Below the pieces are notes generated by a model. That model was not told where the DNA came from. It did not search any database and saw only the letters and a program-made list of their open reading frames with translations. A DNA stretch of 64,000 nucleotides from Shigella phage SF1-1. The position numbers were made by a program, and so were the translations under genes. The stretch is taken from the sequence record PQ571307; one strand, given 5' to 3'. Within the stretch, counting starts at the first letter, position 1; the number at the start of each line of letters is the position of its first letter. Shown here piece after piece: positions 19,976 to 20,278 of the stretch.

Positions 19976-20197
19976 ATGGGTGTTTTTGCAGGTATTGTTG
20001 CAGTGATTATTGTGTTTGTTATTGCTTTTCTGATTAGTATGATTCCAGCATGGCTTCTACTGCTGGCTTATAACTACGTTGTTGAAATGATGGGTCACAC
20101 AGATATCACTGTTCCTGTCACCTTCTGGACTGTGGTGTGTGTGGCATTTATCATGGCTGTACTACGTGGGATCTTTTCCTCAAGTTCTTCAAAATAA
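19976..20197 (+). CDS. small two-helix membrane protein (73 aa)
   Basis: Two long hydrophobic segments; GAGGAG RBS. Confidence 0.5.
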   Translation: MGVFAGIVAVIIVFVIAFLISMIPAWLLLLAYNYVVEMMGHTDITVPVTFWTVVCVAFIMAVLRGIFSSSSSK

Positions 20198-20200
20198 GTG

Positions 20201-20228
20201 TTGACAAAGTTTTAGAATAGAGTAAGAT
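20201..20228 (+). promoter_or_regulatory. sigma70-like promoter (TTGACA-16-TAAGAT) upstream of the TerC-like gene
   Basis: TTGACA 20201-20206, TAAGAT 20223-20228; followed by GC hairpin 20241-20259 in the leader. Confidence 0.45.
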
Positions 20229-20278
20229 GTATCACATGAGGCGGGGAGTGGTTCCCCGCAAAGAGAAAGGAGAAAATA

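Follow-up and report, generated by a model that had tools for sequence, protein, structure and literature searches.

The promoter and leader hairpin that precede the TerC gene of Shigella phage SF1-1 are very probably, as regards both their structure and their family membership, a dispersed copy of a generic early cassette of the phage and not a switch dedicated to TerC. Selection has maintained the hairpin as an RNA structure: in divergent TerC leaders its position, pairing, and stability stay constant and its sequence does not.

Source genome and organization of the TerC unit

The window, that is, the whole 64,000-nt stretch of sequence record PQ571307 analyzed herein, is 99% identical to Escherichia phage phAPEC8 (Phapecoctavirus, Stephanstirmvirinae), in which it corresponds to approximately 78-142 kb in the opposite orientation, and about 70 related genomes cover the region at 95-99%. 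TerC upstream regions were gathered from GenBank phages, IMG/VR, and metagenomes to give 13 distinct leaders, and Citrobacter phage Tr1 was added later as the 14th. The features of the TerC unit are summarized in Table 1; direct reading of the sequence agreed with the initial annotation on the coordinates of the 73-aa ORF, the promoter, the hairpin, the RBS, and TerC. Two related records already carry labels in this region: that of phAPEC8 (JX561091) describes the TerC promoter as a "putative host dependent promoter determined with MEME", and that of phage ASO2A (MZ726793) marks the promoter and labels the hairpin as a "rho-independent terminator predicted by WebGeSTer". No transcript mapping, transcription starts, or half-lives for Stephanstirmvirinae phages were found in the searchable literature.

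Table 1. Features of the TerC unit and of the gene preceding it, in positions of the window
Feature	Position	Strand	Description
73-aa two-helix membrane ORFan (phAPEC8 gp215, phrog_16065)	19976..20197	+	ORF, RBS GAGGAG
Sigma-70-type promoter, putatively early	20201..20228	+	TTGACA 20201-20206, 16-nt spacer, TAAGAT 20223-20228
Conserved initial-transcribed block GTATCACATGAG	20229..20240	+	Matching block GTATCACATA after the -10 in paralogous early cassettes
Leader hairpin	20241..20259	+	7-bp stem GCGGGGA 20241-20247 / TCCCCGC 20253-20259, 5-nt loop GTGGT
A/G-rich single-stranded spacer and SD	20260..20278	+	SD AAGGAG 20267-20272, then 6 nt, ATG
TerC/Alx-family integral membrane protein, 324 aa	20279..21253	+	Pfam TerC, E = 3e-40
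Intrinsic terminator closing the TerC unit	21260..21285	+	AGCCTCC-TTCG-GGAGGCT, then ATTTTAT

Conservation of the promoter

The TerC promoter is intergenic and matches the consensus at 10 of the 12 hexamer positions. Across the 14 divergent TerC leaders, the TTGAC of the -35 hexamer and the T, A, and T of the -10 hexamer were invariant, and the spacer was always 16 nt long with a variable sequence, so that invariant positions amounted to 8/12 in the promoter hexamers versus 4/28 in the spacer and start region (Fisher p = 0.002). Consensus-like promoters alone occurred at chance level (34 versus 32 +/- 6 expected, 11 kb). Neither the promoter nor the hairpin is statistically impressive singly, and both are significant because they are conserved. 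The proposal that TerC has its own promoter was thus borne out by a conserved sigma-70-type footprint, which both JX561091 and MZ726793 annotate.

On the basis of the spacing from the -10 hexamer alone (+7 rule), transcription of TerC is predicted to start at A20234 to A20236. Two ORFs overlapping this region were rejected. A leaderless reading or a leader peptide of 22 aa from the ATG at 20236 was dismissed, as this ATG is missing in phi92 and in the Klebsiella-type leaders, and a minus-strand ORF (20189-20284, 31 aa) that overlaps the promoter and hairpin was unsupported.

Anatomy and conservation of the leader hairpin

The leader hairpin has a folding energy of -12.9 kcal/mol and lacks a U-tract; the fold z-score of the 66-nt local region was only -1.2. 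In the window, whose GC content is 39%, perfect GC-rich hairpins with stems of 7 bp or more are 17 times as frequent as expected (13 versus 0.78). The initial annotation had proposed to judge the hairpin by RNA structure prediction and covariation analysis, and by its conservation in related phages. When these analyses were run, the helix was found to be retained in the relatives with compensatory changes. The stem positions were paired in 100% of 91 alignment cells (13 leaders), with compensatory double changes in five of the seven pairs, as compared with 54-70% pairing and 0-1 compensatory pairs in slid controls. RNAalifold independently predicted this hairpin as the sole helix.

The stem reads GCGGGGA/TCCCCGC in phAPEC8 and tuntematon, GCGGAGG/CCTCCGC in phi92, and AGAGGGAG/CTCCCTCT, AGGGAGAG/CTCTCCCT, or AGAGGGGG/CTCCCTCT in the Klebsiella and Citrobacter lineages. 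Despite stems of either 7 or 9 bp, the free energy stayed between -12.8 and -14.1 kcal/mol across lineages. Two variants (L003 and L016) keep pairing only via G.U on the sense strand, which speaks more for a structure in the sense-strand RNA than for a palindromic operator in duplex DNA. The stem begins 7-12 nt after the -10 hexamer in all copies, the distance being 12 nt in the window's own leader, and about 0-6 nt after the predicted start across lineages. With the start itself predicted by the +7 rule, the number of unpaired 5' nucleotides would be 0-1 in the Klebsiella/Citrobacter-type leaders, about 1-5 in the early paralogs described below, and 5-7 in the window.

The sequence on the 3' side of the hairpin is AAAGAGAA in the window, ATTAAAGA in phi92, and TTCAAAAG in the Klebsiella type. 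All 14 TerC leaders and the paralogs lack a U-tract behind the hairpin, and neither a terminator scan nor ARNold called it. The absence of the U-tract in every lineage ruled out that the hairpin is a canonical intrinsic terminator.

Several other hairpins were observed. Two perfect GC-rich hairpins (16744-16764 and 16780-16798; 7 and 8 bp) lie inside nrdG, at the radical-SAM CxxxCxxC motif, and may be a by-product of coding constraints. A second, intercistronic class is represented by stable U-less GC hairpins between co-directional genes at 46310-46329 and 54047-54066 (minus strand); the start codon of the following gene comes about 20-35 nt later, and there is no obvious promoter. At 27906-27925, the hairpin GAGGGGGA-GAAA-TCCCCCTC follows a gene and is itself followed by a promoter, TTGCAA-17-TATACT (27926-27960); this hairpin-then-promoter order is the conventional one and the reverse of that in the TerC cassette. 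Outside the window, a GGGGA...TCCCC-type hairpin occurs just upstream of the TerC RBS in two unrelated phages that carry TerC, Vibrio phage PhiImVa-1 (L027, 763-794) and Pectobacterium phage Wc4 (L028, 720-767), with a T-tract in Wc4 and without one in PhiImVa-1; these could be coincidence or ordinary terminators.

A family of paralogous cassettes in the early region

Within the window, no other strong promoter precedes a comparable hairpin, and the TerC copy is the single member of the GCGG...CCGC family. A multi-site regulon within the window was accordingly rejected (loop/stem pattern found 20 times versus 13.9 +/- 4.2 expected, with one GCGG...CCGC member). Judged from the window alone, the promoter and hairpin appeared to be an unrepeated pair, a reading that was overturned by phAPEC8 sequence outside the window. 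Inspection of the early-region pieces of JX561091 (L040, 2177-6063; L039, 240-4520) revealed about 17 paralogous cassettes in the early ORFan region of phAPEC8 (143.6-147.7 kb and 0.2-4.5 kb), arranged in tandem between small ORFans with no other terminators there. Each has the layout TTGACA-16/17-TAnnnT, a start block (G/T)TA(T/C)CAC(A/G)TAG, a GC hairpin, an A/G-rich spacer, an SD, and ATG, and the hairpins share a GCGG...CCGC base and AAT(A/G)GT-type loops. Over 72 nt that include the spacer, the TerC cassette was 81% identical to the cassette at about 145.9 kb, whereas the best shuffle reached 64% and hairpin-less promoters of the window 53-57%. The 20-nt "PHIRE promoters" of the phAPEC8 record (e.g., GTAGGGCGGCAATGGTGCCG) were found to be these leader hairpins, lying directly downstream of sigma-70-type promoters, and are probably misannotated as promoters.

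The early region of Citrobacter phage Tr1 contains the same cassette family, with hairpins of the GCGGGGAA type, and its TerC hairpin is of the AGGGAGAG type; concerted evolution of the hairpin type within one genome was therefore not seen in Tr1. The cassette stays with TerC while the upstream genes differ between lineages. The exception was Klebsiella phage FBKp34 (L004, 1964-1991), in which only 28 nt separate TerC (88% identical, with GTG as its start codon) from the secreted-protein gene before it and both promoter and hairpin are absent. A homologue of this upstream gene is present together with the full cassette in L010 and L016. Since FBKp34 expresses TerC without the cassette, the cassette is dispensable.

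A second dispersed cassette was noticed near the thymidylate synthase region, at about 45695 of phAPEC8 (minus strand) and 132244 of Tr1 (plus strand). It consists of TTGACT-16/17-TA(T/A)(A/T)AT and a hairpin that pairs a purine arm with a pyrimidine arm (TGGGAGGAG...CCTCCCA in phAPEC8, TGGGGAGG...CCTCCTCA in Tr1), resembling the phi92- and Klebsiella-type TerC hairpins.

The repeated occurrence of the hairpins raises the possibility that they mark early transcripts, or promoter DNA, for a phage or host protein that could time expression by mRNA shut-off, by antitermination through the TerC terminator, or by an anti-SD-like translational switch. The common stem base and loop type of the ~17 copies, together with the loop positions U2 and G4, which are invariant in the 14 TerC leaders, are consistent with such recognition, as is the capacity of the pyrimidine-rich 3' arm to sequester the SD in most lineages when the 5' arm is unavailable. 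We nevertheless regard a trans-acting factor as unlikely. The Klebsiella/Citrobacter TerC stems (AGGGAGAG/CTCTCCCT) are wholly different from the GCGGGGAA type kept by the early cassettes of the same genome, and one sequence-specific factor cannot read stem types that differ within one genome. Conservation of the loop (2/5 positions invariant) is no higher than that of the stem (4/14), the G.U variants speak against a double-stranded DNA palindrome, and the hairpin is far more stable than the competing anti-SD pairing.

Lambdoid nut sites lie just downstream of early promoters, and the location of the hairpin just 3' of its early promoter is similar. The resemblance is positional only: the loops here (GUGGU, AUAGU, AUUGU, AUAGG) are not GNRA-like, and the phage shows neither boxA nor an N homolog, nor any other candidate factor. 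That the leader hairpins are a shared signal of a post-transcriptional or antitermination program in Stephanstirmvirinae acting on about 18 early transcripts, the TerC mRNA included, is still somewhat less probable. If it were true, a phage or host factor would read a structure-defined 5' hairpin to time stability, translation, or read-through, and the anti-SD-like 3' arm would be a built-in off-switch.

The TerC gene and the riboswitch question

TerC scored 138 bits against PF03741 (cut-off 27.8) and 319 bits against TIGR03718 R_switched_Alx (cut-off 246), is 33% identical to E. coli Alx, and falls into the PHROGs category 'moron, auxiliary metabolic gene and host takeover'. A PDB sequence search with TerC returned no match, and the search for bacterial relatives in genome contigs had as its sole match a phage contig within a MAG. 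The distance from SD to ATG was exactly 6 nt in 14/14 leaders, and a tetraloop hairpin with a T-rich tail lies 3' of TerC in every lineage, including FBKp34 and Tr1. Like phage 'morons', TerC is a single accessory gene with its own promoter and terminator inside a co-directional array; the differences are that promoter and leader were recruited from the phage's own early cassette and that the phage is lytic, not temperate.

Bacterial alx/TerC genes are controlled by yybP-ykoY (Mn2+) or PRE (pH) riboswitches, and the 5' UTR of E. coli alx has been described in the literature as a yybP-ykoY/PRE element. The phage protein belongs to the same Alx subfamily, but its gene is preceded by the leader of a generic phage early cassette. 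The gap from the stop codon of the 73-aa ORF to the TerC ATG is 81 nt, of which about 45 nt would be transcribed as leader, with one helix; a yybP-ykoY/PRE riboswitch, a multi-helix aptamer of at least ~100 nt, was rejected on this ground, in line with the earlier view that the leader is too short for it. An Rfam scan of the TerC leader gave no match at E <= 10. The E. coli K-12 alx leader used as a control (NC_000913.3, 3238297-3238580) was likewise missed, both at the gathering threshold and at E <= 10; negative Rfam calls on Alx leaders therefore need caution, and it is the length argument that carries weight. The phage carries an Alx-type gene stripped of its riboswitch.

Could the hairpin be a minimal metal- or pH-responsive element replacing the riboswitch of bacterial alx? 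The membership of TerC in the riboswitch-linked subfamily TIGR03718 and the retention of the element before TerC across the phage subfamily are compatible with such a sensor, but about 17 unrelated ORFans are preceded by the same cassette, the short leader holds a single 7-bp helix, and no alternative structure was predicted for the window's leader. The missing Rfam match adds a weak argument, given the failed control. A TerC-specific sensor is hence highly improbable.

The 73-aa protein and mosaicism of the neighborhood

The 73-aa protein has hydrophobic segments at residues 2-20 and 44-62 and matched its PHROG at E = 9e-42. It is encoded by a real gene (dN/dS 0.17 versus tuntematon), its homologs are 50-60% identical across the subfamily, and the family comprises 15 clusters only, on phage contigs of about 145 kb. 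In every case the gene directly follows a macro-domain gene, and it is the last gene of that upstream operon, outside the TerC unit. No gene separates the 73-aa ORF from the TerC promoter in Phapecoctavirus, whereas a single gene does so in phi92, L003, and L010, a pair of genes in L009, and a 2.2-kb group of four in Tr1. In FBKp34, both the macro and 73-aa genes are absent from the 2 kb upstream of TerC, and the TerC-carrying Grimontviridae, Schitoviridae, and Ounavirinae phages have no 73-aa homolog. The suggestion that this mini membrane protein is a TerC partner did not survive the comparison: the gene is tied to the macro gene, not to TerC, and as far as genomic association can tell the partner hypothesis is rejected. 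The small ORFs next to TerC in unrelated phages, also considered as analogues of the 73-aa protein, were found to be heterogeneous and unrelated.

The wider neighborhood (17393-24578) resembles Ter-associated stress or nucleoside-metabolite systems. It encodes a 201-aa ORF (putative hydrolase in phAPEC8), a HAD-like hydrolase, PRTase_3 (ComF-like), the macro-domain protein, which shows a weak DarG-like N-terminal match, TerC/Alx, three unknown ORFs, an SprT-like protein, and TelA, to which the neighborhood of relatives adds a TerF-like vWA protein. In Klebsiella phage phi1_175008 (L003), an unannotated gap of about 410 nt (2976-3386) after the TerC terminator shows the start of a short ORF (ATGTATACTTTGATT...), shared by L009, L016, and L018.

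Sliding identity revealed two independently exchanged patches, one of 300 bp (19975-20274) covering the 73-aa ORF, promoter, and hairpin, and the other the TerC body (about 20335-21228). Among Phapecoctavirus genomes that are otherwise 97-100% identical (the window, L005, L006/L011, and L014), the alleles of the two patches occur in all four combinations. The crossovers lie outside the hairpin, at the start of the 73-aa ORF and within the first 30-80 nt of TerC.

This mosaicism recalls the promoter-early stem-loops (PeSLs) described for T4-type phages (Arbiol et al., 2010, PMC2839356; Comeau et al., 2014, PMC4122927). PeSLs are multi-copy composite cassettes in which a strong sigma-70-like early promoter and a G-run/C-run stem-loop are likewise joined to the SD and start of the gene that follows; most copies sit among the small ORFans of a plastic early region, a few are dispersed, and the flanking gene content is variable and mosaic. 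They differ in that the lineage here is Stephanstirmvirinae, not T4-like, that the stem-loop lies downstream of the -10 hexamer within its own transcript, that it is U-less and any termination putative, and that the crossovers map away from it. The TerC promoter-hairpin is a PeSL-like variant with a transcribed stem-loop, ordinary as an expression cassette but well supported.

The same likeness suggests another function, namely that the hairpin attenuates or terminates read-through from upstream, i.e., from the macro/73-aa operon or, in the early region, from the preceding cassette, and forms with the promoter a homologous-recombination linker by which modules are shuffled. The stem-loops of T4-type PeSLs cut lacZ expression like a strong terminator and mediate module exchange (PMC2839356), and the ASO2A annotators called the present hairpin a terminator. 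The position of the early cassettes between tandem ORFans that lack other terminators, the 0-4 differing genes inserted just upstream of the TerC cassette by lineage, and the independent exchange of the two patches also fit a module boundary. It is set against this that no copy has a U-tract, that neither the terminator scan nor ARNold called the hairpin, that the crossovers fall elsewhere, and that the PeSL stem-loop usually lies between or over the -35 and -10 hexamers, where the cassette's own transcript escapes it, whereas here it is transcribed in every copy. A boundary function of this kind is thus considered rather unlikely, if less so than a trans-acting factor.

Proposed function of the leader hairpin

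We propose that 20201-21285 constitutes an autonomous, insulated early monocistronic unit, comprising promoter, hairpin leader, SD, TerC/Alx, and terminator. Such a cassette would let the host RNA polymerase (sigma-70) express TerC immediately post-infection, independently of the surrounding co-directional operon, and constitutive early expression would replace the Mn/pH-sensing riboswitch control of host alx. On the sense-strand RNA, the hairpin could act as a structural cap near the 5' end and so restrict 5'-end-dependent decay (RppH, RNase E), and it could keep its pyrimidine-rich arm and the upstream sequence off the SD, so that translation would start in a fixed context.

That the hairpin is a 5'-proximal mRNA stabilizer or insulator is, in our estimate, about evenly poised between true and false. 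This reading is suggested by the nearness of the stem to the predicted start, its constant stability, and the unstructured spacer and SD. For the insulator part, it is further argued by the phi92 and Klebsiella-type leaders, in which the 3' arm would otherwise sequester the SD: without the 5' arm, predicted SD accessibility fell from 0.54-0.87 to 0.00-0.20. In the window's own leader, access to the SD does not depend on the 5' arm (probability of being unpaired 0.70 with the arm versus 0.62 without), which counts against an insulator role there.

Stabilizing stem-loops at the 5' terminus are known from the E. coli ompA 5' UTR and the phage T7 gene 10 leader (GGGAGACCACAACGGUUUCCC). The TerC leader resembles both in that a stable hairpin lies at or close to the 5' end and is followed by an unstructured A-rich segment and a strong SD, and it resembles the T7 gene 10 leader also in its purine-rich 5' arm and pyrimidine-rich 3' arm. 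It differs in that the window has 5-7 predicted unpaired nucleotides versus the 2-4 or fewer reported to be protective, enough for RppH and RNase E to engage, which argues against a stabilizer. The single-stranded length of the 5' UTR and its first nucleotides are reported to set decay rates in E. coli (PMC11541907), which counts for a stabilizer, and RNase E is reported to bypass an ordinary non-terminal stem-loop readily (PMC9943677), which counts against it, as do the other strong promoters without a hairpin in the window and the cassette-free TerC of FBKp34. With respect to the initial annotation, which had allowed for the hairpin stabilizing the mRNA or modulating translation, mRNA stability is the role that we infer to be most plausible, whereas the implied TerC-specific control does not hold for a copy of a generic cassette.

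Implications

The "terminator" of one record and the 20-mer "phage promoters" of another are the same leader hairpins, each joined to an early promoter of host type, and these annotations are hereby corrected for a phage group of widely isolated therapeutic coliphages. At about 80 nt, the element is a compact natural expression cassette, of which FBKp34 is a natural cassette-minus variant useful experimentally. Since the stem-loop is transcribed, an mRNA-level role of such cassettes becomes directly testable. The PeSL concept, that of promoter and stem-loop cassettes linked with gene shuffling, would extend to a second, unrelated myovirus lineage. For TerC itself, the arrangement suggests that a host-derived Alx-type gene, normally riboswitch-controlled, has been rewired as an insulated unit for unconditional and probably immediate early expression.
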